DNA of 64,000 nt from Escherichia coli (GCF_003334315.1 NZ_QOWR01000009.1); one strand, 5' to 3'. Numbered from the stretch's first letter, positions 7,993-37,029 are shown. The notes: generated from the letters alone by a model not told the origin. Program-made: numbers and translations.

Positions 7993-8712
7993 ATCGCTGC
8001 GACAGTGGCTAATGCTGTACTCAATAGGCCGTTGCTGTTGGTCAAGCGCCACTTGCTTGATCACCAGCACCGGTATTTTGCTATCTAACTGAATATGTGA
8101 CTGAAACTCGGCATCCGGCATCCGGGCGCTAACGCGGGAACGTGTACGTTGTGGGTAAATGTGCTGGCTGCGGAAATAGTCATAAAGTGAAATCCCGATG
8201 GCATCAACATCATGAATTAAATGCGCCGGAACCCACGATTCCTCAATCGATACCGCTTCTTCATCGACATAGCGAATACGCTTAAGCAAAAAGACATCAC
8301 TTCCTGCTTCGACCGCCAGCTGCTGCGCGACTTCTTCGGGACATTTCACGACACGCTTGTTAACCCATAGCGTATCGGGCTTTTTCCCGCGCAATACCAC
8401 CTGCTGAGAAAAACCTCGCGCTTCTTTCAACGAGTATTCGAAGATGTTGTTGATCTGCGTGCCGTAACCGCGCGAACGCGTCACCACACCCTCTTCTTCC
8501 AGCGCCTGCATCGCCTTGCGCACCGTAATGCGCGAAACGCCGGTTAACTGACTTAAATCACGCTCACCGGGCAAAATATTGCCATGCTCCAGCACCCCGC
8601 TGCGCACGGCATTTTTTACCGTTTCGGCAAACTTAATATAAAGCGGCGTGTTATCCGCAGCTAAAATACGCTCGTTCAGTTGGGCAATCAGCTGGGTATG
8701 CGCTTGTTCCAT
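7966..8712 (-). CDS. yegW: GntR/HutC-family transcriptional regulator
   Basis: 248 aa; N-terminal winged-helix region (...LPGERDLSQLTGVSRITVRKAMQAL...) and a UTRA-like C-terminal part. Confidence 0.85.
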   Translation of the reverse strand: MEQAHTQLIAQLNERILAADNTPLYIKFAETVKNAVRSGVLEHGNILPGERDLSQLTGVSRITVRKAMQALEEEGVVTRSRGYGTQINNIFEYSLKEARGFSQQVVLRGKKPDTLWVNKRVVKCPEEVAQQLAVEAGSDVFLLKRIRYVDEEAVSIEESWVPAHLIHDVDAIGISLYDYFRSQHIYPQRTRSRVSARMPDAEFQSHIQLDSKIPVLVIKQVALDQQQRPIEYSISHCRSDLYVFVCEE

Positions 8713-22303: not shown

Positions 22304-22404
22304 ATAAATTCCTAAAGTTGTTTTCTTGCGATTTTGTCTCTCTCTAACCCGCATAAATACTGGTAGCATCTGCATTCAACTGGATAAAATTACAGGGATG
22401 CAGA

Positions 22405-25400
22405 ATGAGACACTTTATCTATCAGGACGAAAAATCACATAAATTCTGGGCGGTGGAGCAACAGGGAAACGAGTTGCATATCAGTTGGGGAAAAGTTGGC
22501 ACCAAAGGGCAAAGTCAGATAAAAAGTTTTTCAGATGCTGCGGCAGCGGAAAAAGCGGAACTTAAGCTGATTGCGGAGAAGGTGAAGAAGGGGTATGTGG
22601 AGCAAGCGAAGGATAATTCTTTGCAACCTTCCCAAACGGTAACGGGCTCTCTCAAGGTAGCGGACTTATCCACCATTATTCAGGAACAACCCTCTTTCGT
22701 AGCAGAAACCCGTGCGCCTGACAAAAATACAGATGCTGTTTTACCGTGGCTGGCGAAAGATATTGCTGTCGTTTTTCCGCCCGAAGTTGTACACACCACG
22801 TTAAGTCATCGCCGCTTTCCCGGAGTTCCTGTTCAGCAAGCAGACAAATTGACCCAATTACGTCGCTTAGCCTGTAGTGTGTCGCAACGGGATAATAAAA
22901 CAGCCACATTTGACTTCAGCGCCTGTTCTTTAGAATGGCAAAACACCGTCGCCCAGGCGATCAGTCAGATCGACGGCCTGAAAACAACACAGTTACCATC
23001 ACCAGTAATGGCTGTACTCACGGCACTTGAAATGAAATGCACAAGATATAAAGTGCGTGAGGATGTTATGGATCAGATCGTCCAGGAAGGCGGTCTGGAA
23101 TATGCTACTGATGTAATAATACACCTTCAACAGATTGATATTGAATGGGATTATGCGAATAATGTCATTATTATTCTGCCGTCTGGCATTGCACCTAGCT
23201 ACTTGGAGCAATATTCCAGATTTGAATTACGCCTACGTAAACATTTATCACTGACGGAAGAGTCTCTCTGGCAAAAATGTGCACAAAAACTTATTGCCGC
23301 AATTCCACATATTCCAGAATGGCGGCAACCATTAATTGCTTTGTTATTACCCGAAAAACCAGAAATTGCACATGAAATTGCCCAGCGTCTACTGGGGCAA
23401 AAAAAATTACCCTCGCTTGAGTGGTTAAAAATAGTGGCGACTGATGAGCACATTCTTGCCTCATTAGAAAAATATCACGAACCATATGCCATTTTTGATG
23501 ATTACTATTGTGGTGCGATATGGTCAGCCACCGTATTACAGGAGCAAGGTGTTGCAGCCCTGCCCCGATTTGCTCCCTATGCCGCAAGTGACTACTGCGC
23601 CGATGTGTTGCGTCATATCAATCATCCGTTCGCATTGACACTGCTTATACGTGTAGCCGGGCAAACTAAACGCTGTCACGATCGGATGACGAAAGCCATT
23701 GCTGCGTTCCCACATGCAGCAATGGCGGCACTGACGGAACTTCTTGGGCAAAAAGAAGAGAACAGTTGGCGCATTATGCTAATGACAATGCTTATCTCAC
23801 AACCAGCACTGGCAGAACAGGTCATTCCCTGGCTCTCGACACCCGCAGTTGCCGTACTGAAATCATGCCAGCAACAACTGACACAGCCCTCAAACCATGC
23901 CAGCGCCGATCTACTGCCAGCCGTAGTAGTCTCCCCTCCCTGGCTTTCGAAAAAGAAAAAATCGCCGATTCCGGTGCTGGATTTAGCGCCATTAGGCATT
24001 GAGCCAATCTGTTATCTGACAGAAGAAATCAGTAATCAACTTTTGGCGAAATATATCTGGTATTCAAAACACATCACGGTTAGCCATGAAGAAAGTACTA
24101 CCAACCTGTTGGCAAGGATGGGTTTTCAACGACGGATCGCTGGTACATATATTAAAGCTCCCGAAGCGGTAGTTGAGGCATGGCTAAATGAAGATTATTC
24201 AACCTTACTAAGTGAATTTAAGGTGTTTCATTCACCTACCGGGCATTATTGGCAGTTGGGGATTTTGACAACATTGCCGCTGGAGAAAGCAGTAAAAGCA
24301 TGGAATGCCCTTACCCTATCTCCACATACCGATACCGAATACTCCATGTTACATTTTGGACTCAAAGGGTTACCTGGGTTAGTAAACTCACTTGCACGCT
24401 ATCCACAAGAAGCCTTGCCCATCACGAATTACTTCGCAGCGAGTGAGCTGGCTCCTGCCGTCGCCCGTGCCTTCAACAAACTGAAAACGCTACGCGAAAA
24501 CGCCCGTAGCTGGCTGTTGAAATACCCGGAACATGCCCTTACCGGCCTGCTGCCTGCGGCGCTCGGCAAAGCCGGTGAAGCACAGGATAACGCCCGCGCT
24601 GCCTTGCGTATGCTTACCGAAAACGGTCATCAGCCATTACTGCAAGAAATCGCCCGACGTTATAACCAGCCGGAAGTAACCGATGCGGTGAACGCTCTGC
24701 TTGCGCTCGATCCCTTAGATAATCACCCGACAAAAATCCCCACTCTTCCGGCCTTTTATCAGCCATCGCTCTGGACGCGCCCGGTATTAAAAGCAAATGC
24801 CCAATCACTGCCAGATAGCGCCCTCCTCCACCTCGGTGAAATGCTCCGCTTCCCTCAGGAAGAGGCTCTGTATCCGGGATTATTGCAGGTGAAAGACGTC
24901 TGTTCCGCCGACTCACTGGCGGGATTTGCCTGGGATCTGTTTACCGCCTGGCAGACCGCTGGCGCGCCGTCGAAAGAGAGTTGGGCGTTCACTGCGTTAG
25001 GCGTTCTCGGTAACGATGACACCGCCCGCAAACTGACGCCATTAATACGCGCCTGGCCTGGTGAATCCCAGCATAAACGCGCCACCGTTGGGTTGGATAT
25101 TCTCGCTGCTATCGGTAGTGATATCGCCCTTATGCAGCTTAACGGCATCGCCCAGAAACTGAAATTCAAAGCATTACAGGAGCGGGCAAAAGAAAAAATT
25201 GCCGACATTGCCGAGAGCCGCGAACTCACGGTGGCGGAGCTTGAAGATCGGTTAGCACCGGATCTCGGTCTGGATGATAACGGTTCGCTGCTGCTGGATT
25301 TTGGCCCACGGCAGTTCACCGTCAGCTTTGATGAAACCTTAAAACCGTTTGTGCGTGATGTTTCCGGCAGCCGCCTGAAGGACCTGCCCAAACCGAACAA

Positions 25401-26199
25401 AAGCGATGATGAAACGCGGGCGAACGATGCGGTTAACCGCTACAAATTGCTGAAAAAAGATGCGCGTACCATCGCCGCCCAGCAGGTAGCAAGGCTGGAA
25501 TCCGCCATGTGCCTGCGCCGCCGCTGGTCGCTGGAAAACTTCCAGCTCTTCCTGGTTGAGCATCCGCTGGTTCGTCACTTAACCCGCCGTCTGATTTGGG
25601 GCGTTTATAGCGCCGAAAACCAGCTACTGGCTTGCTTTCGCGTAGCAGAAGATAACAGCTCCAGCACCGCTGACGATGATCTTTTCACCCTGCCGGAAGG
25701 CGATATCTCTATCGGCACTCCTCACGTTCTGGAAATATCACCAACGGATGCTGCCGCCTTTGGTCAGCTTTTTGCCGACTACGAACTGCTACCACCGTTC
25801 CGCCAGCTCGACCGTAACAGCTACGCCCTGACAGAAGCCGAGCGCAATGCCAGTGAACTGACCCGCTGGGCAGGCAGAAAATGCCCGAGTGGTCGGGTCA
25901 TGGGGCTGGCGAATAAAGGCTGGATAAAGGGCGAACCACAGGATGGAGGCTGGATCGGATGGATGATCAAACCTTTGGGTCGCTGGTCGTTAATCATGGA
26001 AATCGATGAAGGCTTTGCGGTAGGCATGTCGCCAGCCGAACTCAGCGCTGAGCAGCTCTTAAGCAAGCTGTGGCTATGGGAAGGCAAAGCAGAAAGATAT
26101 GGCTGGGGGAGTAATTCAACACAGGAAGCGCAGTTCTCCGTAATCGATGCCATCACCGCCAGCGAGCTAATTAACGATATTGAAGCCCTGTTTGAATAA
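22405..26199 (+). CDS. molR: Giant WGR-domain protein (so-called molybdate metabolism regulator), intact here
   Basis: Uninterrupted 1264-aa ORF. The N-terminal ~80 aa form a WGR domain (FWAVEQQGNELHISWGKVGTKGQ...). The rest is paralogous to YehI. Confidence 0.8.
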   Translation: MRHFIYQDEKSHKFWAVEQQGNELHISWGKVGTKGQSQIKSFSDAAAAEKAELKLIAEKVKKGYVEQAKDNSLQPSQTVTGSLKVADLSTIIQEQPSFVAETRAPDKNTDAVLPWLAKDIAVVFPPEVVHTTLSHRRFPGVPVQQADKLTQLRRLACSVSQRDNKTATFDFSACSLEWQNTVAQAISQIDGLKTTQLPSPVMAVLTALEMKCTRYKVREDVMDQIVQEGGLEYATDVIIHLQQIDIEWDYANNVIIILPSGIAPSYLEQYSRFELRLRKHLSLTEESLWQKCAQKLIAAIPHIPEWRQPLIALLLPEKPEIAHEIAQRLLGQKKLPSLEWLKIVATDEHILASLEKYHEPYAIFDDYYCGAIWSATVLQEQGVAALPRFAPYAASDYCADVLRHINHPFALTLLIRVAGQTKRCHDRMTKAIAAFPHAAMAALTELLGQKEENSWRIMLMTMLISQPALAEQVIPWLSTPAVAVLKSCQQQLTQPSNHASADLLPAVVVSPPWLSKKKKSPIPVLDLAPLGIEPICYLTEEISNQLLAKYIWYSKHITVSHEESTTNLLARMGFQRRIAGTYIKAPEAVVEAWLNEDYSTLLSEFKVFHSPTGHYWQLGILTTLPLEKAVKAWNALTLSPHTDTEYSMLHFGLKGLPGLVNSLARYPQEALPITNYFAASELAPAVARAFNKLKTLRENARSWLLKYPEHALTGLLPAALGKAGEAQDNARAALRMLTENGHQPLLQEIARRYNQPEVTDAVNALLALDPLDNHPTKIPTLPAFYQPSLWTRPVLKANAQSLPDSALLHLGEMLRFPQEEALYPGLLQVKDVCSADSLAGFAWDLFTAWQTAGAPSKESWAFTALGVLGNDDTARKLTPLIRAWPGESQHKRATVGLDILAAIGSDIALMQLNGIAQKLKFKALQERAKEKIADIAESRELTVAELEDRLAPDLGLDDNGSLLLDFGPRQFTVSFDETLKPFVRDVSGSRLKDLPKPNKSDDETRANDAVNRYKLLKKDARTIAAQQVARLESAMCLRRRWSLENFQLFLVEHPLVRHLTRRLIWGVYSAENQLLACFRVAEDNSSSTADDDLFTLPEGDISIGTPHVLEISPTDAAAFGQLFADYELLPPFRQLDRNSYALTEAERNASELTRWAGRKCPSGRVMGLANKGWIKGEPQDGGWIGWMIKPLGRWSLIMEIDEGFAVGMSPAELSAEQLLSKLWLWEGKAERYGWGSNSTQEAQFSVIDAITASELINDIEALFE

Positions 26200-26208
26200 G
26201 GAAAGAGC

Positions 26209-29200
26209 ATGGACAAGGAATTACCGTGGCTGGCGGATAACGCCCAACTGGAACTGAAATATAAAAAAGGCAAAACGCCGCTCAGTCATCGTCGCTGGCC
26301 GGGCGAACCAGTGTCCGTTATCACTGGAAGTCTCATCCAGACATTGGGTGATGAATTGCTACAAAAAGCTGAGAAGAAAAAAAACATTGTCTGGCGTTAT
26401 GAGAATTTTTCACTGGAGTGGCAGTCCGCCATCACGCAGGCCATCAACTTGATCGGCGAACACAAACCCTCAATCCCGGACCGGACAATGGCGGCGCTAG
26501 CCTGTATCGCGCAAAATGACAGCCAACAGTTGCTCGACGAAATCGTCCAACAAGAGGGGCTGGAATATGCGACTGAGGTGGTGATTGCACGCCAGTTTAT
26601 TGCGCGGTGTTATGAGAGTGATCCTCTGGTAGTGACATTGCAGTATCAGGACGAGGATTATGGCTATGGTTATCGCTCAGAAACCTATAACGAATTCGAT
26701 CTCCGACTGCGTAAGCATCTCTCTCTGGCAGAGGAAAGCTGCTGGCAGCGTTGCGCCGACAAACTCATTGCCGCACTACCAGGAATAACCAAAGTTCGCC
26801 GCCCTTTTATTGCGCTGATCCTCCCGGAAAAACCAGAAATAGCCAATGAGTTGGTAGGCCTTGAATGCCCGCGAACTCATTTTCATTCTAAGGAGTGGTT
26901 AAAAGTTGTTGCTAATGACCCCACAGCGGTGAGAAAACTCGAACACTACTGGAGCCAGGATATATTTAGCGATCGAGAAGCCAGCTACATGTCGCATGAA
27001 AACCACTTCGGCTACGCGGCCTGCGCCGCCCTTTTGCGCGAACAAGGACTGGCAGCCATTCCGCGCCTCGCGATGTATGCCCATAAAGAAGATTGCGGCA
27101 GTCTGCTGGTACAAATTAACCATCCGCAAGTCATCCGCACCTTGCTACTGGTGGCTGATAAAAACAAACCCAGCCTGCAACGTGTAGCTAAATACCATAA
27201 AAACTTCCCCCATGCGACGCTCGCCGCACTGGCAGAACTGCTGGCGTTAACAGAACCACCAGCCCGCCCTGGTTATCCAATCATCGAAGACAAAAAGCTG
27301 CCTGCACAGCAAAAAGCACGCGATGAATACTGGCGTACGCTGTTACAAACGCTGATGGCATCGCAGCCACAACTGGCAGCAGAAGTGATGCCGTGGTTAA
27401 GTACTCAACCCCAGTCAGTGCTGAAGAGTTATTTATCGGCACCGCCCAAACCGGTTATTGATGGCACCGATAACAGCAATCTGCCAGAAATCCTCGTTTC
27501 ACCACCGTGGCGTAGTAAGAAAAAAATGACAGCTCCACGTCTTGATTTGGCACCGCTCGAATTAACTCCGCAAGTTTACTGGCAACCAGGCGAACAAGAG
27601 AGGCTTGCCGCCACTGAGCCTGCCCGTTATTTCAGCACGGAATCTCTTGCGCAACGCATGGAACAAAAAAGTGGACGAGTTGTATTACAGGAACTGGGTT
27701 TTGGGGATGATGTATGGCTGTTTCTGAATTATATACTCCCCGGAAAACTGGATGCTGCACGCAATTCACTCTTTGTTCAGTGGCATTACTACCAGGGGCG
27801 GGTTGAAGAGATCCTGAATGGCTGGAACTCCCCGGAAGCACAATTAGCAGAACAGGCGCTCCGCAGCGGTCACATAGAAGCGTTAATTAACATATGGGAA
27901 AATGACAACTACTCACATTATCGTCCGGAAAAGAGTGTCTGGAACCTGTATTTATTGGCACAGTTGCCGCGTGAGATGGCTTTGACCTTCTGGCTGCGTA
28001 TCAATGAGAAAAAGCATCTGTTCGCGGGTGAGGACTATTTTCTCAGTATCCTCGGATTGGATGCGCTACCAGGTCTGCTGTTGGCTTTTTCACATCGTCC
28101 AAAAGAAACATTTCCGTTAATTTTAAATTTTGGCGCAACAGAACTGGCGCTGCCTGTTGCCCACGTCTGGCGACGTTTCGCGGCGCAGCGTGATCTGGCT
28201 CGCCAGTGGATTTTACAATGGCCGGAACATACGGCTAGTGCACTTATCCCTCTTGTCTTTACCAAACCCAGCGATAATAGCGAAGCCGCATTACTTGCCC
28301 TGCGTTTACTGTACGAACAGGGACATGGCGAATTGCTACAAACCGTGGCAAACCGCTGGCAGCGTACAGATGTATGGTCTGCCCTGGAGCAGTTGCTTAA
28401 ACAGGGTCCAATGGACATTTACCCGGCACGCATTCCAAAAGCCCCTGATTTCTGGCATCCGCAAATGTGGTCCAGGCCGCGCCTTATCACTAATAATCAA
28501 ACTGTTACCAATGACGCTCTGGAAATTATCGGCGAAATGCTGCGCTTTACCCAGGGGGGACGTTTTTATAGCGGGCTGGAACAACTGAAAACGTTCTGCC
28601 AGCCACAAACGCTGACAGCTTTTGCCTGGGATCTCTTCACTGCGTGGCAACAAGCTGGTGCCCCCGCAAAAGACAACTGGGCATTTCTGGCGTTAAGTCT
28701 CTTTGGTGACGAAAGCACGGCACGGGATCTGACGACACAGATCCTCGCCTGGCCACAAGAAGGCAAATCTGCCCGTGCTGTCAGCGGCCTGAACATCCTT
28801 ACCCTGATGAATAATGATATGGCGCTGATACAGCTGCATCATATATCGCAACGGGCTAAATCCCGCCCCTTACGTGATAACGCGGCGGAATTTCTTCAGG
28901 TGGTCGCAGAAAATCGCGGGCTAAGCCAGGAAGAGCTAGCGGACAGATTAGTCCCAACCCTGGGCCTTGATGATCCGCAGGCGTTGAGTTTTGATTTTGG
29001 TCCCCGGCAGTTTACCGTTCGCTTCGATGAAAATCTCAACCCGGTTATCTTTGATCAGCAAAACGTTCGCCAGAAAAGCGTTCCCCGTTTGCGCGCCGAT
29101 GACGATCAACTGAAAGCGCCCGAGGCACTGGCCCGACTAAAAGGGCTAAAAAAAGATGCTACTCAGGTGAGCAAAAACCTGCTCCCGCGTCTTGAAACGG

Positions 29201-29841
29201 CCCTACGTACCACCCGACGCTGGTCGCTGGCAGATTTTCATTCTCTGTTTGTTAATCATCCCTTTACCCGTCTGGTTACCCAGCGATTAATATGGGGGGT
29301 TTATCCGGCAAATGAACCGCGTTGTTTACTCAAAGCCTTTCGTGTGGCCGCAGAGGGGGAGTTCTGCAATGCGCAAGATGAGCCAATTGACCTGCCTGCG
29401 GACGCTCTGATTGGCATTGCCCACCCGTTAGAAATGACAGCAGAAATGCGCAGTGAATTTGCACAGCTTTTTGCCGATTACGAAATTATGCCGCCTTTTC
29501 GCCAGTTGTCGCGCCGCACGGTGCTGCTCACACCTGACGAGTCAACCAGTAACAGCCTGACTCGCTGGGAAGGTAAATCCGCTACCGTTGGGCAACTTAT
29601 GGGAATGCGATACAAAGGCTGGGAGTCAGGCTATGAGGACGCATTTGTCTATAACCTGGGTGAGTACCGGCTGGTCCTTAAGTTTTCACCCGGTTTTAAC
29701 CACTACAATGTTGATAGCAAAGCGCTAATGAGCTTCCGTTCTCTTCGAGTGTACCGTGACAATAAATCCGTCACTTTTGCCGAACTTGATGTGTTTGATT
29801 TGAGTGAGGCGTTAAGCGCACCTGACGTCATTTTCCATTAA
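26209..29841 (+). CDS. yehI: Giant uncharacterised protein, MolR paralogue lacking the WGR domain
   Basis: 1210 aa; long blocks shared with MolR (VSPPW.SKKK, FDFGPRQFTV.FDE, LFADYE..PPFRQL). Confidence 0.85.
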   Translation: MDKELPWLADNAQLELKYKKGKTPLSHRRWPGEPVSVITGSLIQTLGDELLQKAEKKKNIVWRYENFSLEWQSAITQAINLIGEHKPSIPDRTMAALACIAQNDSQQLLDEIVQQEGLEYATEVVIARQFIARCYESDPLVVTLQYQDEDYGYGYRSETYNEFDLRLRKHLSLAEESCWQRCADKLIAALPGITKVRRPFIALILPEKPEIANELVGLECPRTHFHSKEWLKVVANDPTAVRKLEHYWSQDIFSDREASYMSHENHFGYAACAALLREQGLAAIPRLAMYAHKEDCGSLLVQINHPQVIRTLLLVADKNKPSLQRVAKYHKNFPHATLAALAELLALTEPPARPGYPIIEDKKLPAQQKARDEYWRTLLQTLMASQPQLAAEVMPWLSTQPQSVLKSYLSAPPKPVIDGTDNSNLPEILVSPPWRSKKKMTAPRLDLAPLELTPQVYWQPGEQERLAATEPARYFSTESLAQRMEQKSGRVVLQELGFGDDVWLFLNYILPGKLDAARNSLFVQWHYYQGRVEEILNGWNSPEAQLAEQALRSGHIEALINIWENDNYSHYRPEKSVWNLYLLAQLPREMALTFWLRINEKKHLFAGEDYFLSILGLDALPGLLLAFSHRPKETFPLILNFGATELALPVAHVWRRFAAQRDLARQWILQWPEHTASALIPLVFTKPSDNSEAALLALRLLYEQGHGELLQTVANRWQRTDVWSALEQLLKQGPMDIYPARIPKAPDFWHPQMWSRPRLITNNQTVTNDALEIIGEMLRFTQGGRFYSGLEQLKTFCQPQTLTAFAWDLFTAWQQAGAPAKDNWAFLALSLFGDESTARDLTTQILAWPQEGKSARAVSGLNILTLMNNDMALIQLHHISQRAKSRPLRDNAAEFLQVVAENRGLSQEELADRLVPTLGLDDPQALSFDFGPRQFTVRFDENLNPVIFDQQNVRQKSVPRLRADDDQLKAPEALARLKGLKKDATQVSKNLLPRLETALRTTRRWSLADFHSLFVNHPFTRLVTQRLIWGVYPANEPRCLLKAFRVAAEGEFCNAQDEPIDLPADALIGIAHPLEMTAEMRSEFAQLFADYEIMPPFRQLSRRTVLLTPDESTSNSLTRWEGKSATVGQLMGMRYKGWESGYEDAFVYNLGEYRLVLKFSPGFNHYNVDSKALMSFRSLRVYRDNKSVTFAELDVFDLSEALSAPDVIFH

Positions 29842-29901
29842 AACACAGCGGGCAGTGATGCAACTGCCCGTTATCAACACGACTTACCAGCGGGGAAAGC
29901 G

Positions 29902-30219
29902 ATGATCGTGCAAAAAGAGCTGGTTGCTATTTACGATTATGAGGTCCCTGTACCTGAAGATCCGTTTTCCTTCAGACTTGAGATCCATAAATGCTCTGAA
30001 TTATTTACAGGTTCCGTCTATCGACTGGAGCGATTCCGGCTACGTCCAACATTTCATCAACGTGATCGAGAAGATGCTGACCCGCTAATAAATGATGCGT
30101 TGATTTATATAAGAGATGAGTGTATTGATGAGCGGAAATTACGAGGTGAATCACCTGAAACTGTAATAGCAATTTTTAATCGTGAACTACAGAATATATT
30201 CAACCAAGAAATAGAATAA
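29902..30219 (+). CDS. yehK: Small uncharacterised protein
   Basis: 105-aa ORF directly downstream of yehI. Confidence 0.75.
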   Translation: MIVQKELVAIYDYEVPVPEDPFSFRLEIHKCSELFTGSVYRLERFRLRPTFHQRDREDADPLINDALIYIRDECIDERKLRGESPETVIAIFNRELQNIFNQEIE

Positions 30220-30389
30220 TATACTCTAAATAATTCAAATTGGTCCGATCCGGCGCACCGTCCCAATGGCCTGGATTATAAATCTCATTATCTTAATTGC
30301 AACGGGGTCCAGCCGTGGTTATAATTCGTTCGTTGGAACACGATGTTGCACAGGCTGTGGTGTTAGGCCTGAAAATAGTAAATAAAAGA

Positions 30390-30416
30390 ACCTGCCTCAC
30401 CAGCAGGTTTTTTTAT
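30390..30416 (+). terminator. Intrinsic terminator downstream of yehK
   Basis: AACCTGC-ctcacc-AGCAGGTT hairpin followed by TTTTTTT. Confidence 0.55.
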
Positions 30417-30525
30417 TTACTGTGATCTGCTTTCCAGATATTTTTCGCTCAAACAACTAATGCGCCAAACATTTATTGCGCGTAAAATATCGTTTATTTC
30501 ATTAATACATTTCAGGGATGAATAT

Positions 30526-31613
30526 ATGTCACCGCAGAATAATCATCTGCAGCGTCCGCCTGCTGCTGTGTTATACGCCGATGAACTGGCAAAATTAAAA
30601 CAAAATGATAACGCACCTTGCCCGCCCGGTTGGCAGTTAAGTTTGCCTGCGGCCCGTGCTTTTATCCTTGGCGACGAAGCGCAAAATATCAGCCGTAAAG
30701 TGGTGATTAGCCCCTCCGCTGTCGAACGTATGTTAGTCACTCTTGCTACCGGCCGCGGTTTGATGTTGGTGGGGGAACCGGGTACCGCAAAATCTCTTCT
30801 TTCTGAATTACTGGCAACCGCTATTAGCGGCGATGCCGGGTTAACCATCCAGGGCGGGGCATCTACCACCGAAGATCAAATCAAGTATGGCTGGAACTAC
30901 GCCCTGCTTATCAATCATGGTCCGTCAACGGAAGCGCTGGTCCCTGCCCCGCTTTATCAGGGAATGCGCGACGGCAAAATCGTCCGTTTCGAAGAGATAA
31001 CGCGTACACCGCTGGAAGTGCAGGACTGTCTGTTAGGTATGCTTTCTGACAGGGTGATGACGGTGCCGGAACTCACTGGTGAAGCCAGTCAGCTCTATGC
31101 GCGAGAAGGCTTTAATATTATTGCCACTGCCAATACCCGCGATCGCGGCGTCAATGAAATGAGTGCTGCGCTAAAGCGTCGCTTCGATTTTGAAACGGTT
31201 TTTCCGATTATGGATTTCGCCCAGGAGTTGGAACTGGTCGCCAGTGCTTCGGCGCGTTTGCTGGCCCATAGCGGTATTCCGCATAAAGTGCCTGACGCGG
31301 TACTGGAATTACTGGTCCGCACCTTCCGCGATCTGCGTGCCAACGGCGAAAAGAAAACGTCAATGGATACACTGACAGCGATTATGTCCACCGCTGAAGC
31401 CGTGAACGTGCCCATGCTGTGGGCGTCCGCGCCTGGTTTTTAGCGAATCGCGCGGGGGAGCCTGCCGACCTGGTGGAATGTATTGCCGGAACCATCGTCA
31501 AAGATAACGAAGAAGATCGCGCGCGTCTGCGCCGTTACTTCGAACAGCGTGTCGCCACACATAAAGAAGCTCACTGGCAGGCTTATTATCAAGCCCGCCA
31601 CCGCCTGCCGTGA
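30526..31613 (+). pseudogene. yehL: MoxR-type AAA+ ATPase, reading frame broken by a frameshift near 31395-31443
   Basis: Walker A (VGEPGTAKS) lies in ORF 30460..31443. The C-terminal part continues in a different frame (ORF 31419..31613) and ends 10 nt before the yehM start. The span is 1088 nt against the 1089 nt expected for the 362 aa I recall for K-12 YehL. Confidence 0.65.
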
Positions 31614-31623
31614 GGAAAGATGC

Positions 31624-33903
31624 ATGAGCGAGCCGTTAATTGTCGGCATCCGGCATCATAGTCCGGCCTGCGCCCGGCTGGTGAAATCGTTAATCGAAAG
31701 CCAGCGGCCACGATACGTGTTGATTGAAGGCCCGGCTGATTTTAATGACCGGGTAGACGAACTGTTTTTAGCCCACCAGCTTCCGGTAGCTATTTACAGT
31801 TATTGCCAGTATCAGGACGGTGCAGCCCCCGGGCGTGGTGCCTGGACGCCATTTGCTGAATTTTCGCCGGAGTGGCAGGCGCTACAAGCCGCACGTCGCA
31901 TTCAGGCACAAACTTACTTCATCGATTTGCCTTGCTGGGCGCAGAGTGAAGAAGAGGACGATTCGCCTGATACGCAAGATGAAAGCCAGGCCTTACTGCT
32001 GCGTGCCACCCGCATGGATAACAGCGATACCCTGTGGGATCACTTGTTCGAAGATGAAAGCCAGCAAACTGCATTACCCTCTGCGCTGGCGCACTATTTT
32101 GCCCAACTGCGGGGCGACGCCTCCGGCGATGCGCTCAATCGTCAGCGCGAAGCCTTTATGGCCCGCTGGATTGGATGGGCGATGCAGCAAAATAATGGCG
32201 ACGTGTTAGTTGTCTGCGGTGGCTGGCACGCTCCGGCACTGGCAAAGATGTGGCGCGAATGCCCTCAGAAAATTAACAAGCCAGAATTGCCCTCGCTGGC
32301 AGATGCCGTTACAGGTTGTTATCTCACACCCTACAGTGAAAAGCGCCTTGATGTGCTGGCAGGATACCTTTCAGGAATGCCTGCCCCGGTATGGCAAAAC
32401 TGGTGCTGGCAGTGGGGCTTGCAGAAGGCCGGTGAACAACTGCTAAAAACTATCCTTACCCGTTTGCGCCAGCACAAATTGCCCGCTTCTACCGCGGATA
32501 TGGCTGCCGCTCATCTGCATGCGATGGCGCTGGCACAGTTGCGCGGTCATACACTACCGTTACGCACTGACTGGCTGGATGCCATAGCAGGCTCGCTGAT
32601 TAAAGAAGCCCTGAACGCGCCGTTGCCGTGGAGCTATCGCGGCGTTATTCATCCCGATACCGATCCGATTCTGCTAACGTTGATAGACACATTAGCGGGT
32701 GACGGATTCGGTAAACTTGCCCCTTCTACGCCACAACCGCCTCTGCCAAAAGATGTCACCTGCGAACTGGAACGTACCGCAATCTCCCTTCCGGCGGAGC
32801 TTACCTTAAATCGCTTTACCCCCGATGGGCTGGCGCAAAGTCAGGTGTTACATCGGCTGGCAATACTGGAGATCCCTGGGATTGTACGCCAGCAGGGAAG
32901 TACACTGACACTTGCAGGCAACGGTGAAGAACGCTGGAAATTAACCCGCCCGCTTAGCCAGCATGCGGCATTGATTGAGGCCGCCTGTTTTGGTGCCACA
33001 CTCTAGGAAGCCGCACGCAATAAATTAGAAGCCGATATGCTGGACGCGGGCGGAATCGGCAGTATCACCACATGTCTTAGCCAGGAGGCGTTAGCGGGTC
33101 TGGCGTCCTTCAGTCAACAATTACTGGAGCAACTCACACTATTAATCGCCCAGGAAAATCAATTTGCCGAAATGGGCCAGGCGCTGGAAGTGCTTTATGC
33201 CTTATGGCGGCTGGATGAAATTAGCGGTATGCAAGGCGCGCAGATATTACAAACGACGTTATGCGCGACTATCGATCGCACGCTGTGGCTGTGTGAATCT
33301 AACGGCAGACCGGATGAAAAGGAGTTTCACGCTCACCTGCATAGCTGGCAAGCGCTTTGCCATATTCTGCGCGATCTACATAGCGGCGTTAATTTACCCG
33401 GCGTTTCTCTTTCTGCGGCGGTAGCCTTACTGGAGCGACGCAGTCAGGCAATTCATGCCCCGGCGCTGGATCGCGGCGCGGCTCTTGGCGCACTAATGCG
33501 TCTGGAACATCCCAACGCCAGTGCCGAAGCGGCGCTGACGATGCTGGCGCAGTTATCCCCGGCACAATCTGGTGAGGCGCTGCACGGTTTGCTGGCGCTG
33601 GCCCGCCATCAACTGGCCTGTCAGCCGGCATTTATCGCCGGTTTCAGCAGTCATTTAAATCAACTGAGTGAAGCCGATTTTATTAACGCCCTGCCCGATT
33701 TACGCGCGGCGATGGCCTGGCTACCACCACGAGAACGCGGGACGCTGGCGCATCAGGTGCTTGAGCATTATCAACTGGCGCAACTTCCCGTTTCGGCGCT
33801 GCAAATGCCGTTGCATTGTCCACCACAGGCCATTGCACATCATCAACAACTCGAACAGCAGGCACTGGCATCGCTGCAAAACTGGGGAGTTTTCCATGTC
33901 TGA
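31624..33903 (+). pseudogene. yehM: Large uncharacterised protein interrupted by an in-frame TAG at 33004-33006
   Basis: ORF 31483..33006 and ORF 33037..33903 are in the same frame, separated only by one amber codon. The total span is 2280 nt, exactly 759 codons plus stop. GAGGAAA ribosome-binding site before the ATG at 31624. Confidence 0.65.
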
Positions 33904-35032
33904 ACTGAACGATCTTCTGACCACCCGTGAGCTACAACGCTGGCGATTAATTCTTGGCGAAGCGGCAGAAACGACGCTTTGTGGGCTGGATGACAACGCC
34001 CGGCAGATAGACCACGCGCTGGAGTGGCTGTATGGGCGCGATCCTGAACGGCTCCAGCGTGGTGAACGTTCCGGTGGATTAGGTGGCTCAAATCTCACCA
34101 CCCCTGAGTGGATCAACAGTATTCACACGCTGTTTCCGCAGCAGGTGATTGAGCGGCTGGAAAGCGATGCCGTGCTGCGCTACGGCATTGAAGATGTGGT
34201 GACGAATCTCGACGTGCTGGAACGTATGCAGCCTTCTGAAAGCCTGCTACGCGCTGTTTTGCACACCAAACATCTGATGAACCCCGAAGTACTGGCTGCC
34301 GCCCGCCGGATAGTGTGCCAGGTTGTTGAAGAAATTATGGCTCGACTGGCAAAGGAAGTTCGTCAGGCTTTTTCTGGTGTCCGCGATCGCCGTCGCCGTT
34401 CATTTATTCCACTGGCGCGAAACTTTGATTTCAAAAGTACTCTGCGCGCCAACCTGCAACACTGGCACCCGCAACACGGCAAGTTGTATATCGAATCCCC
34501 CCGCTTTAACAGCCGCATTAAACGCCAAAGCGAACAATGGCAACTGGTCTTACTGGTTGATCAAAGCGGATCGATGGTCGATTCGGTGATCCACTCTGCG
34601 GTGATGGCGGCCTGTTTGTGGCAGTTACCCGGCATTCGTACCCATCTGGTGGCGTTTGACACAAGCGTCGTTGATCTCACGGCAGACGTTGCCGATCCGG
34701 TAGAGTTATTAATGAAAGTACAGTTGGGCGGCGGGACCAATATCGCCAGTGCCGTGGAGTATGGTCGGCAACTTATTGAACAACCAGCGAAAAGCGTCAT
34801 TATCCTCGTGAGCGATTTTTACGAAGGGGGTTCATCATCATTACTGACGCATCAGGTGAAAAAGTGTGTCCAGAGCGGCATCAAAGTGCTGGGACTGGCA
34901 GCGCTCGATAGCACCGCAACACCTTGCTATGACCGCGATACGGCCCAGGCGCTGGTTAATGTCGGCGCACAAATAGCCGCCATGACGCCGGGCGAGCTGG
35001 CATCATGGCTTGCGGAGAATCTTCAGTCATGA
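33896..35032 (+). CDS. yehP: von Willebrand factor A (VWA) domain protein with a MIDAS motif
   Basis: 378 aa from MSELNDLL; the MIDAS motif D-x-S-x-S (DQSGSM) is present; 8-nt overlap with the yehM stop. Confidence 0.85.
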   Translation: MSELNDLLTTRELQRWRLILGEAAETTLCGLDDNARQIDHALEWLYGRDPERLQRGERSGGLGGSNLTTPEWINSIHTLFPQQVIERLESDAVLRYGIEDVVTNLDVLERMQPSESLLRAVLHTKHLMNPEVLAAARRIVCQVVEEIMARLAKEVRQAFSGVRDRRRRSFIPLARNFDFKSTLRANLQHWHPQHGKLYIESPRFNSRIKRQSEQWQLVLLVDQSGSMVDSVIHSAVMAACLWQLPGIRTHLVAFDTSVVDLTADVADPVELLMKVQLGGGTNIASAVEYGRQLIEQPAKSVIILVSDFYEGGSSSLLTHQVKKCVQSGIKVLGLAALDSTATPCYDRDTAQALVNVGAQIAAMTPGELASWLAENLQS

Positions 35033-37029
35033 ATTCACTACGTCCGGAATTATTAGAACTGACACCGCAGGCCCTGACGGCGTTAAGCAATGCCGGTTTT
35101 GTTAAGCGCAGTCTTAAGGAACTGGAAAATGGCAACGTCCCGGAGATCAGCCATGAGAACGACGCTTTAATCGCCACCTTCAGTGACGGTGTCCGTACCC
35201 AGCTGGCGAACGGCCAGGCACTGAAAGAGGCTCAGTGCAGTTGCGGGGCCAACGGTATGTGCCGTCATCGCGTGATGCTGGTGTTAAGTTATCAACGACT
35301 TTGTGCCACCACTCAGTCTACGGAAAAAGAAGAAGAGTGGGATCCGGCAATCTGGCTGGAAGAACTGGCTACCCTTCCCGATGCTACCCGCAAACGCGCA
35401 CAGGCGCTGGTCGCTAAAGGCATCACCATTGAGTTGTTCTGTGCGCCGGGTGAAATTCCCTCTGCCCGCTTACCGATGAGCGATGTGCGTTTTTATTCCC
35501 GCAGCAGTATTCGTTTCGCCCGTTGTGATTGTATTGAAGGCACACTTTGCGAACATGTCGTACTGGCGGTACAGGCCTTCGTCGAGGCCAAAGCGCAGCA
35601 AGCAGAATTTAACCATTTAATCTGGCAGATGCGCAGCGAACACGTCACATCATCTGACGATCCGTTTGCCAGCGAAGAAGGCAACGCGTGTCGTCAATAT
35701 GTTCAGCAATTAAGCCAGACATTATGGCTTGGCGGCATCAGCCAGCCGCTCATCCATTACGAGGCAGCATTCAACCGCGCATTGCAGGCGGCAGAGACCT
35801 GCAACTGGCGCTGGGTGAGTGAATCGCTACGGCAACTGCGCGCCAGCGTTGATGCCTTCCACGCCCGCGCCAGCCACTATAATGCCGGAGAATGCTTACA
35901 TCAGCTTGCGGCATTAAACAGTCGATTAAATTGCGCACAAGAGATGGCCCGGCGCGACAGTATTGGTGAAGTTCCTCCTGTGCCGTGGCGCACGGTCGTT
36001 GGCTCTGGCATTGCCGGAGAAGCAAAGCTTGATCATCTGCGGCTGGTGTCTTTAGGTATGCGTTGCTGGCAGGATATTGAGCATTATGGTTTACGCATCT
36101 GGTTTACCGATCCCGACACCGGCAGTATTTTGCACCTTTCGCGCAGTTGGCCGCGAAGTGAACAGGAAAACTCACCGGCAGCTACGCGTCGGCTGTTTAG
36201 TTTTCAGGCTGGCGCACTGGCGGGCGGGCAAATTGTTTCACAAGCAGCAAAACGCAGTGCCGATGGCGAGCTGCTGTTAGCTACCCGCAACCGCTTAAGC
36301 AGCGTTGTGCCGCTGTCGCCTGATGCCTGGCAAATGTTGAGCGCGCCGTTACGCCAGCCGGGCATTGTGGCTTTGCGGGAATATTTACGCCAGCGTCCCC
36401 CCGCCTGCATACGGCCTCTTAATCAGGTCGATAACTTATTTATTCTGCCGGTCGCTGAGTGTATTTCGCTCGGTTGGGACAGCAGCCGCCAGACGCTGGA
36501 TGCGCAGGTCATTAGCGGCGAAGGGGAAGATAATGTGCTGACGTTATCATTACCAGCCTCAGCCAGCGCACCTTATGCCGTTGAACGCATGGCGGTGCTT
36601 TTGCAACAAACAGACGACCCCGTGTGTCTGGTTTCTGGCTTTGTCAGTTTTGTTGAAGGGCAATTGACACTGGAACCACGGGTGATGATGACAAAAACCC
36701 GTGCCTGGGCGCTGGACGCAGAAACTACGCCTGTGGCACCGCTACCTTCTGCCAGCGTTTTGCCTGTGCCGTCTACTGCTCATCAGTTGCTGATACGCTG
36801 CCAGGCGTTACTTATTCAACTGCTCCATAACGGCTGGCGCTATCAGGAACAGAGTGCTATTGGTCAGGCAGAGTTGCTGGCGAATGACCTCACCGCGGTG
36901 GGTTTTTATCGGCTGGCACATGTGTTGGGACAATTTCGTAATACAGAAAGCGAGGCACGGGTAGAAGCAATGAATAACGGTGTTTTGCTTTGCGAACAAT
37001 TATTCCCCATGCTTCAGCAACAAGGATGA
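35029..37029 (+). CDS. yehQ: SWIM zinc-finger domain protein
   Basis: Two C-x-C-x(n)-C-x-H motifs (CSCGANGMCRH and CDCIEGTLCEH). ATGA start/stop overlap with yehP. Length from this start is about 666 aa. Confidence 0.8.
   Translation: MNSLRPELLELTPQALTALSNAGFVKRSLKELENGNVPEISHENDALIATFSDGVRTQLANGQALKEAQCSCGANGMCRHRVMLVLSYQRLCATTQSTEKEEEWDPAIWLEELATLPDATRKRAQALVAKGITIELFCAPGEIPSARLPMSDVRFYSRSSIRFARCDCIEGTLCEHVVLAVQAFVEAKAQQAEFNHLIWQMRSEHVTSSDDPFASEEGNACRQYVQQLSQTLWLGGISQPLIHYEAAFNRALQAAETCNWRWVSESLRQLRASVDAFHARASHYNAGECLHQLAALNSRLNCAQEMARRDSIGEVPPVPWRTVVGSGIAGEAKLDHLRLVSLGMRCWQDIEHYGLRIWFTDPDTGSILHLSRSWPRSEQENSPAATRRLFSFQAGALAGGQIVSQAAKRSADGELLLATRNRLSSVVPLSPDAWQMLSAPLRQPGIVALREYLRQRPPACIRPLNQVDNLFILPVAECISLGWDSSRQTLDAQVISGEGEDNVLTLSLPASASAPYAVERMAVLLQQTDDPVCLVSGFVSFVEGQLTLEPRVMMTKTRAWALDAETTPVAPLPSASVLPVPSTAHQLLIRCQALLIQLLHNGWRYQEQSAIGQAELLANDLTAVGFYRLAHVLGQFRNTESEARVEAMNNGVLLCEQLFPMLQQQG

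Follow-up and report, generated by a model that had tools for sequence, protein, structure and literature searches.

The question raised by this locus is whether yehL, yehM, yehP and yehQ, four consecutive genes of Escherichia coli, belong to a molecular system of their own and, if so, what an intact copy of that system may do. The genes lie at positions 30526-37029 of a 64,000-nt stretch of E. coli DNA (GCF_003334315.1, NZ_QOWR01000009.1), which is referred to in full as the window. A preliminary description presented them as four intact, translationally coupled genes encoding a MoxR-type AAA+ ATPase, a 759-codon protein, a protein whose von Willebrand factor A (VWA) domain carries a metal-ion-dependent adhesion site (MIDAS), and a protein with two SWIM zinc fingers. 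It also proposed a link to the WGR-domain protein MolR and a nucleic-acid-directed role related to stress or phage. The composition of AAA+, VWA-MIDAS and SWIM proteins is backed by Pfam and by motifs, with GEPGTAKS, DQSGSM, CSCGANGMCRH and CDCIEGTLCEH each found in the translations. The spacing of the genes (a gap of 10 nt, then overlaps of 8 nt and 4 nt) is reproduced by mapping of the VR50 annotation.

Searches of the literature for the yehLMPQ genes, for DUF5682 and DUF4132, and for the combination of MoxR, SWIM and WGR returned incidental mentions only and no functional study, so that the combination is, as had been stated, one for which the searchable literature holds no characterised function. 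YehL has been treated since 2006 as a MoxR subfamily of its own, without an assigned function. Of the seven MoxR subfamilies, one bears its name, and E. coli K-12 has only one other MoxR protein. MoxR-VWA pairs are widespread, with clients known for only a handful. The annotated genes and the subfamily name were thus already known, and the most fitting description of the system is that of an uncharacterised MoxR-VWA remodelling variant. What is new is its definition as five genes and its spread across phyla, the fusion of YehM with YehP, the fold of YehM with its candidate catalytic residues, and the degenerate state of the copy in the window.

The gene map combines the RefSeq gene coordinates of E. 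coli VR50, transferred to the window, with a six-frame list of open reading frames and a comparison with annotated E. coli genomes. The gene order across the region is metG, molR, yehI, yehK, yehL, yehM, yehP, yehQ and yehR. The features that concern the module are the following.

22405-26199, plus strand: molR-like gene, intact, 1264 amino acids, with WGR, a long helical region and DUF4132 (open reading frame)
26209-29841, plus strand: yehI, a molR paralogue without WGR, 1210 amino acids (annotation)
30526-31613, plus strand: yehL, MoxR-type AAA+ ATPase (AAA_5, Pfam), frameshifted; Walker A GEPGTAKS at 30772-30795
31409-31410, plus strand: site of the 1-bp deletion in yehL, one G of GG lost (alignment to VR50)
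31624-33903, plus strand: yehM (DUF5682), interrupted by a stop; predicted TIKI-like N-terminal domain of about 250 residues at 31624-32373
33004-33006, plus strand: premature TAG at codon 461 of yehM (CAG in all close genomes)
33896-35032, plus strand: yehP, CoxE-type VWA protein with intact MIDAS (Pfam); DQSGS at 34559-34573
34754-34769, plus strand: GTGGAGTATGGTCGGC, a +1 frameshift-prone cassette within yehP (exact 16-nt match to the published cassette)
35029-37029, plus strand: yehQ, 666 amino acids, with two SWIM fingers at 35236-35268 and 35524-35556 (motif and Pfam)

The five-gene module and its conservation

The genomic context was sampled at eight distant loci whose YehM relatives are 31-49% identical to YehM. 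A single-protein query of genome contigs returned close relatives only (Escherichia and Klebsiella), and the distant context was taken from contigs that encode homologues. Seven of the eight loci keep one order of five genes, namely a WGR and DUF4132 protein (MolR-like), an AAA_5 protein (YehL), a DUF5682 protein (YehM), a VWA_CoxE protein (YehP) and a SWIM-like protein (YehQ), with the MolR-type gene immediately 5' of the AAA_5 gene. The order is found in Serratia fonticola, Variovorax, Streptomyces xinghaiensis, a Vulcanimicrobiota genome (in two places) and two more bacteria, represented by a metagenome contig and a genome assembly. The eighth locus, in a Sandaracinaceae genome, is interrupted by the end of the contig. 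Neighbouring genes of the module in the distant loci mostly abut or overlap, the VWA_CoxE gene lies two genes 3' of the AAA_5 gene in seven of the eight as well as in E. coli, and the SWIM-like protein is 620-880 amino acids long.

The proposed link with MolR is therefore strongly borne out by gene order in seven of the eight distant loci. The adjacency itself holds in other taxa but not in the window, where yehI, yehK and a small RNA gene of the orz type stand between molR and yehL. The genes, moreover, co-occur well beyond E. coli, the order of five recurring across phyla. Judged by gene order, an ancient module of five genes has yehLMPQ as its 3' portion, and this five-gene unit, conserved from Enterobacteria to Streptomyces, is the real one. 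By the same comparison, the ancestral operon has been enlarged and broken up in E. coli: molR has been duplicated, and yehK and a zor/orz remnant have been inserted.

The DUF5682 family comprises 2,252 clusters at 50% identity (E ≤ 1e-3). YehM is fused to YehP in 4 of 123 full-length representatives of the family, and such a fusion is classical evidence for joint action of the two proteins. Identity among homologues ranges from 53 to 76% for YehL, from 32 to 45% for the DUF4132 proteins and from 27 to 37% for YehQ.

Of 5,426 E. coli genomes, 5,414 carry the cluster at one common chromosomal site. The ratios of non-synonymous to synonymous substitution rates (dN/dS) between E. coli and E. whittamii are 0.029 for yehL, 0.039 for yehP, 0.085 for yehQ, 0.088 for yehM and 0.157 for yehI; these low values indicate that the intact genes are under strong purifying selection. 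The comparison with Klebsiella was set aside, with dS above 2 (saturated) and approximate coordinates.

Individual copies decay all the same. In K-12 MG1655 (locus L015, 2196474-2210944), molR is split into yehF (WGR only) and the yehH pseudogene, and yehQ encodes 614 amino acids versus 666 in the window. In public data, yehM products are also found cut short in several different ways, and some of these have hundreds of member sequences. The module thus appears to be of use in nature, although many lineages can do without it, as can cells in the laboratory. As the K-12 copy and that of the window are both degenerate, screens in K-12 may be blind to the function of the module, which might account for their uninformative results.

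Lesions in yehL and yehM

The four genes had been described as intact, but in the window yehL is frameshifted and yehM is interrupted by a stop. In yehL, one G is missing at 31409/31410, after codon 294, relative to all close genomes. The shifted frame runs through 10 aberrant codons to a stop at 31441-31443, which gives a product of 304 amino acids versus 362, and 68 C-terminal residues are lost, invariant positions among them. In yehM, a C to T change at 33004 turns CAG into TAG at codon 461 of 759, and the six-frame list accordingly contains the yehM frame in two pieces (31483-33006 and 33037-33903). The open reading frame of 759 codons that had been reported is hence not present in the window. 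The stop removes the C-terminal 299 residues, that is, the whole HEAT-like tail, and probably uncouples the translation of yehP.

The operon differs from that of VR50 at four positions in a base-by-base comparison, one indel and three substitutions. Besides the two lesions, these are the private substitutions 33086 C to A (A488E in yehM, 3' of the stop) and 36596 C to T (A523V in yehQ). All four private changes over 6.5 kb alter a protein and none is synonymous, as fits relaxed constraint after the first inactivating hit. The ten best complete genomes score the same as VR50, which means that none of them shares the changes of the window. Probes of 81 nt spanning the deletion and the stop were compared with 5,426 complete E. 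coli genomes; neither has an identical match there, and the best match of each is one difference away.

That both lesions are sequencing or assembly errors, the module being intact in the strain, is possible in principle and would tell against the reading given here. Both changes are missing from every other complete genome, and single-base deletions are a frequent type of error. The deletion, however, falls within a GG dinucleotide and not in a long homopolymer, and the second lesion is a substitution, a much rarer type of error. The flanking sequence also speaks against such an origin. In 19.5 kb aligned to VR50, the yehL deletion is the single indel, and in the next 23.2 kb, compared with the closest genome, there are eight single-nucleotide polymorphisms (three synonymous, three non-synonymous and two intergenic) and no indel or nonsense change. 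The lesions are not general assembly noise, because some 43 kb of flanks show no other indel or nonsense change. The protein-altering nature of all four private changes, which fits relaxed constraint, and the fact that independent inactivations of yehM and molR are common in E. coli count on the same side. Errors are therefore an unlikely explanation, with the odds well against them.

On these comparisons of sequence, it is most likely that yehL and yehM have been genuinely, and recently, inactivated in the source strain. The yehLMPQ module of the window is almost certainly non-functional, and both lesions would be recent and private to the strain. The operon would then be a fresh pseudogene cluster, one more example of the decay seen in this module. 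A programmed frameshift was also considered for the yehL lesion and was rejected, as no other genome has the deletion and the new frame meets its stop after 10 codons.

The proteins and a possible mechanism

YehL matches Pfam AAA_5 (2.6e-34) and, weakly, bpMoxR (0.0024). Its GEPGTAKS, VRFEE (Walker B), TAN (sensor 1) and RDRG...KRRF arginines are invariant in nine homologues. When the YehL family profile is compared with solved structures, the AAA modules of midasin are the best match (3e-16), followed by archaeal Lon, a MoxR structure and McrB. YehP matches VWA_CoxE (3.2e-72), and its MIDAS residues D222, S224, S226, T281 and D307 are invariant in seven homologues; the protein terminates right after the VWA domain. 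The cassette GTGGAGTATGGTCGGC was reported in the FSscan study to promote +1 ribosomal frameshifting in yehP, the predicted frameshifted product being 75 amino acids shorter (PMC2790909).

YehM, which had been presented as a protein without a recognisable motif, matches Pfam DUF5682 over its whole length (3.1e-98) and shows a fold with conserved His and Glu motifs. The AlphaFold model (predicted local distance difference test, pLDDT, 90.1; predicted template modelling score, pTM, 0.86) contains an N-terminal alpha/beta domain of about 250 residues, a mixed middle part and an all-helical, HEAT-like C-terminal solenoid. In an alignment of 29 sequences, all invariant polar residues lie in the N-terminal domain, within the first 200 residues or so; the invariant residues are R10, H11, E35, H51, E83, D101, E143, R175, E176 and H202. 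In the topology of the domain, G8-x-x-H11 follows strand 1, E35 stands at the end of strand 2 and G199-x-x-H202 follows a later strand. The same order and a similar spacing are seen in YbaP, the E. coli member of the TraB family, with G38xxH41, E67 and G249xxH252. A structural paper on RRSP places ChaN, HopBA1, Bcr135 and PMT in the TIKI superfamily, and describes active TIKI members as having a site of two His and two Glu with a basic residue nearby. The N-terminal domain of YehM thus resembles, in the model, the fold shared by TIKI, TraB, ChaN and erythromycin esterase, and carries candidate hydrolase residues; this is a resemblance, not proven homology. These residues are now specific targets for mutation.

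The two SWIM matches of YehQ in Pfam are weak (0.0013 and 0.21). Finger 1 (C70-x-C72-x5-C78-x-H80) is invariant in 16 homologues, and the residues of finger 2 (C166, C168, C174 and H176) are at least 90% conserved. The AlphaFold2 model (pLDDT 87.7) predicts helical bundles and two beta-rich regions similar to the oligonucleotide/oligosaccharide-binding (OB) fold, with weak matches to the OB folds of RPA70, POT1, CTC1, Stn1 and SSB. YehQ has otherwise served as a decoy protein in a cross-linking study. A sequence and profile search of the PDB gave no match for YehM, YehP or YehQ.

The WGR domain of MolR (residues 2-70) matches PDB 2ra8 (2.4e-17), and DUF4132 (9.7e-50) covers about residues 988-1173. 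YehI is some 37% identical to MolR from about residue 107 onward. WGR domains sense DNA breaks in PARP enzymes. Homologues of the WGR and DUF4132 proteins are part of the DdrO/IrrE radiation regulon of Deinococcus. The number of DUF4132 copies is one in most taxa, two in E. coli and at locus L009, and three in tandem in Klebsiella spallanzanii. The loci on which the copy number was read from gene context are given below.

22405-29841 in the window, 1-8662 in L005 and 3227-8883 in L009: DUF4132 copy-number loci

This varying copy number suggests that DUF4132 is the diversifying, specificity-giving part of the module.

From these parts, we infer that the intact module is a remodelling machine of midasin type in control of a TIKI-fold hydrolase, possibly linked to DNA damage through molR; this is a tentative reading to which a probability of roughly 0.45 is given. 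In MoxR-VWA pairs and in midasin, a partner is gripped by the MIDAS domain and is remodelled or released by the AAA+ ring at the expense of ATP. The YehL ring and the YehP MIDAS adaptor would form such an ATP-driven pair, comparable to midasin, CbbQ/CbbO, NorQ/NorD and CoxD/CoxE. YehM would be their dedicated partner, its N-terminal domain keeping the Glu and the pair of GxxH motifs usual in active TIKI-superfamily hydrolases, and its HEAT-like tail may serve as a docking surface. YehQ, with SWIM fingers and OB-like barrels, and MolR, with WGR and a long helical region, would select the target, which may plausibly be nucleic-acid-bound or related to DNA damage. ATP hydrolysis would then turn the activity of YehM on, or hand the target over to it.

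The DNA-damage part of this reading concerns the region upstream of yehL, where three further features are found.

22380-22395, plus strand: LexA-box-like CTGG-N8-ACAG, ending 10 nt 5' of the molR ATG (pattern search)
29902-30219, plus strand: yehK, 105 amino acids, only in Escherichia loci (open reading frame and annotation)
30339-30414, plus strand: orphan gene of an OrzO/OrzP-type antitoxin small RNA (Rfam RF02083)

The LexA-like box before molR has one mismatch to the CTGT-N8-ACAG core, and a published list of LexA-regulated genes whose SOS box is known includes molR (PMC6590174). A search with the LexA 20-mer consensus, allowing up to three mismatches, gave no match. The orz gene reaches 99.9 bits, the gathering score being 60. 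A promoter-like site lies at 30297-30325, a terminator hairpin with a T-run at 30389-30416, and the zor toxin gene is missing beside the orz gene. Situated some 110 nt 5' of the yehL start, this terminator probably shields yehLMPQ from transcription that enters from upstream. Between the terminator and the yehL start, the promoter scan found no sigma-70-like promoter at its threshold. yehL is listed in a table of in-vitro transcription profiling of sigma-S versus sigma-70. The yehK-yehL spacer is bound by H-NS, and an hns/stpA mutant has higher levels of yehL and yehM (PMC3686432). The G+C content is 0.44-0.45 over yehK and the spacer (29500-30999) versus about 0.55 in yehLMPQ, and the low value in the spacer fits the published binding of H-NS there.

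Loci with orz only, including that of MG1655, have already been published and shown to be expressed (PMC11264685). The related Escherichia locus L002 keeps a 29-amino-acid ZorO open reading frame at 8382-8471 on the minus strand. As for yehK, it is probably not a part of the ancestral module, because it is missing from Klebsiella, Serratia and the more distant loci.

Several observations weigh against the remodelling reading. For YehM, an hhalign comparison with TraB/YbaP gives a probability of 0.2%, which is not significant, the TraB alignment used being shallow (at least 65% identity), and no TraB, ChaN or Ere domain is found in YehM by Pfam; the link between YehM and TraB is thus one of fold level and motif logic only. 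ChaN and PMT demonstrate, in addition, that the same fold occurs without catalysis. The Walker B motif of YehL has EE rather than DE, and the resemblance of YehQ to OB folds is weak (Foldseek E ≥ 0.05). As for regulation, the strict CTGT-N8-ACAG core does not occur in the window, no CTG-N10-CAG is found upstream of MolR homologues outside Escherichia (Serratia, Variovorax and other loci), and the LexA-like box lies 8 kb upstream of yehL, with the terminator in between. The connection of the module with DNA damage through this box is accordingly weak, because of the mismatch in the core, the failure to find the box in other genera and the terminator before yehL, and no sign emerged that LexA control extends to yehLMPQ. 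The suggestion of a nucleic-acid or stress link nevertheless stays plausible, through the WGR domain, the SWIM fingers, the weak OB resemblance of YehQ and the listing of molR under LexA; the phage-related part of that suggestion is taken up below.

Rival functions and known systems

The module may also be considered as an anti-phage or conflict system, in which the MoxR-VWA pair would be a nucleoside-triphosphate-dependent switch, YehQ and MolR sensors of the invader, and YehM the effector, a toxic protease or esterase. A switch role has been proposed for MoxR-vWA pairs in ternary conflict systems of CoxD-CoxE origin (PMC7159879), and TIKI-fold toxins and effectors are known in RRSP, the type III effector HopBA1 and PMT, although the last has neither the TIKI catalytic motif nor endopeptidase activity. 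The rapid divergence of YehQ and of the DUF4132 proteins, whose identities are well below those of YehL and which change fastest, the range of one to three DUF4132 copies, the recurrent inactivation (in the window, in molR and yehQ of K-12 and in the truncated yehM alleles) and the silencing of the operon by H-NS would all suit such a role. However, none of the seven proteins matches PADLOC-DB 2.0 (E ≤ 0.01), and the site is fixed in nearly all E. coli genomes, unlike the patchy distribution of defence islands. Among 72,556 plasmid records only 39 contain the module, and most of these are megaplasmids or mislabelled chromosomes; among 50,697 phage records only 1 does. The neighbours in the eight loci are not defence genes, the dN/dS values of 0.03-0.09 carry no sign of an arms race, and the eLife survey of MoxR-vWA systems mentions no YehL, SWIM, WGR or DUF4132 (PMC7159879). 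The NCBIfam scan returned nothing specific. The phage-defence suggestion of the preliminary description thus gains no direct support from the PADLOC result, the fixed core site, the near absence from phages and true plasmids, or the non-defence neighbours, and a conflict function is judged to be unlikely.

A role in the insertion of a metal or cofactor, of the CoxD/CoxE, NorQ/NorD or Mg-chelatase type, with YehM as a ChaN-like carrier of metal or haem, draws on the same proteins. It would account for the strong VWA_CoxE match of YehP, for the resemblance of the YehM fold to ChaN and for the old name of MolR, "molybdate metabolism regulator", and it would agree with the fact that most characterised MoxR-VWA pairs mature metalloenzymes. 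It does not sit well with the eight loci, where no client enzyme is conserved beside the module, nor with the WGR and SWIM domains, which are not features of known maturation systems, nor with the GxxH, Glu and GxxH residues of hydrolase type that YehM retains. In the Deinococcus regulon study, moreover, genes of molybdate metabolism were not differentially expressed while the WGR/DUF4132 genes were strongly induced, and a molybdate role of MolR is given there as a possibility only. Cofactor maturation is thus quite improbable. In a narrower form of the hydrolase idea, the module would be an SOS-linked, AAA+-driven protease that acts on DNA-associated targets, and so the functional counterpart, in bacteria, of the p97/SPRTN pathway. 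Damaged or single-stranded DNA with a protein trapped on it would be recognised by MolR and YehQ; the YehL-YehP motor would pull this protein out or present it, and YehM would cleave it. If so, the machine would act on DNA-protein crosslinks or stalled nucleoprotein complexes; this version is highly speculative and is given long odds.

The remodelling reading, in which YehL and YehP act on or through YehM, may be placed among the known systems as follows. With the VMAP/iSTAND ternary conflict systems (Kaur et al. 2020), the module shares a MoxR-vWA core derived from CoxD/CoxE and additional large components. It differs from them in that no VMAP or STAND component and no effector domain in YehP are seen in Pfam scans, VMAP profiles not having been searched separately; and, unlike the MoxR-vWA ternary conflict systems, yehLMPQ shows no enrichment among multicellular bacteria within the present sample. 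Relative to members of the TIKI/TraB superfamily, the YehM domain is unusual in being fused to about 500 helical, HEAT-like residues and in lying inside an AAA+/VWA operon.

The placing of a MoxR-class AAA+ gene beside a VWA gene is common to yehLMPQ and to CoxD-CoxE, NorQ/NorD, CbbQ/CbbO, RavA/ViaA and BchI/BchD. In contrast to such pairs, no client enzyme is encoded near yehLMPQ, and three further large conserved partners are present; three dedicated partners beside the MoxR-VWA pair are not seen in characterised MoxR-VWA systems. The closest parallel for the proposed mechanism is midasin (Rea1), the eukaryotic AAA_5 ring with a C-terminal MIDAS domain, in which an ATPase is likewise paired with a MIDAS-bearing VWA domain. 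The logic expected from this likeness is that the MIDAS grips a partner and that ATP hydrolysis pulls or remodels it. In the Yeh module, however, the ATPase and the MIDAS are supplied by two separate small proteins, YehL and YehP, with no ribosome-assembly partners, and the TIKI-fold part of YehM, the SWIM part of YehQ and the WGR/DUF4132 parts of MolR have no counterpart in midasin.

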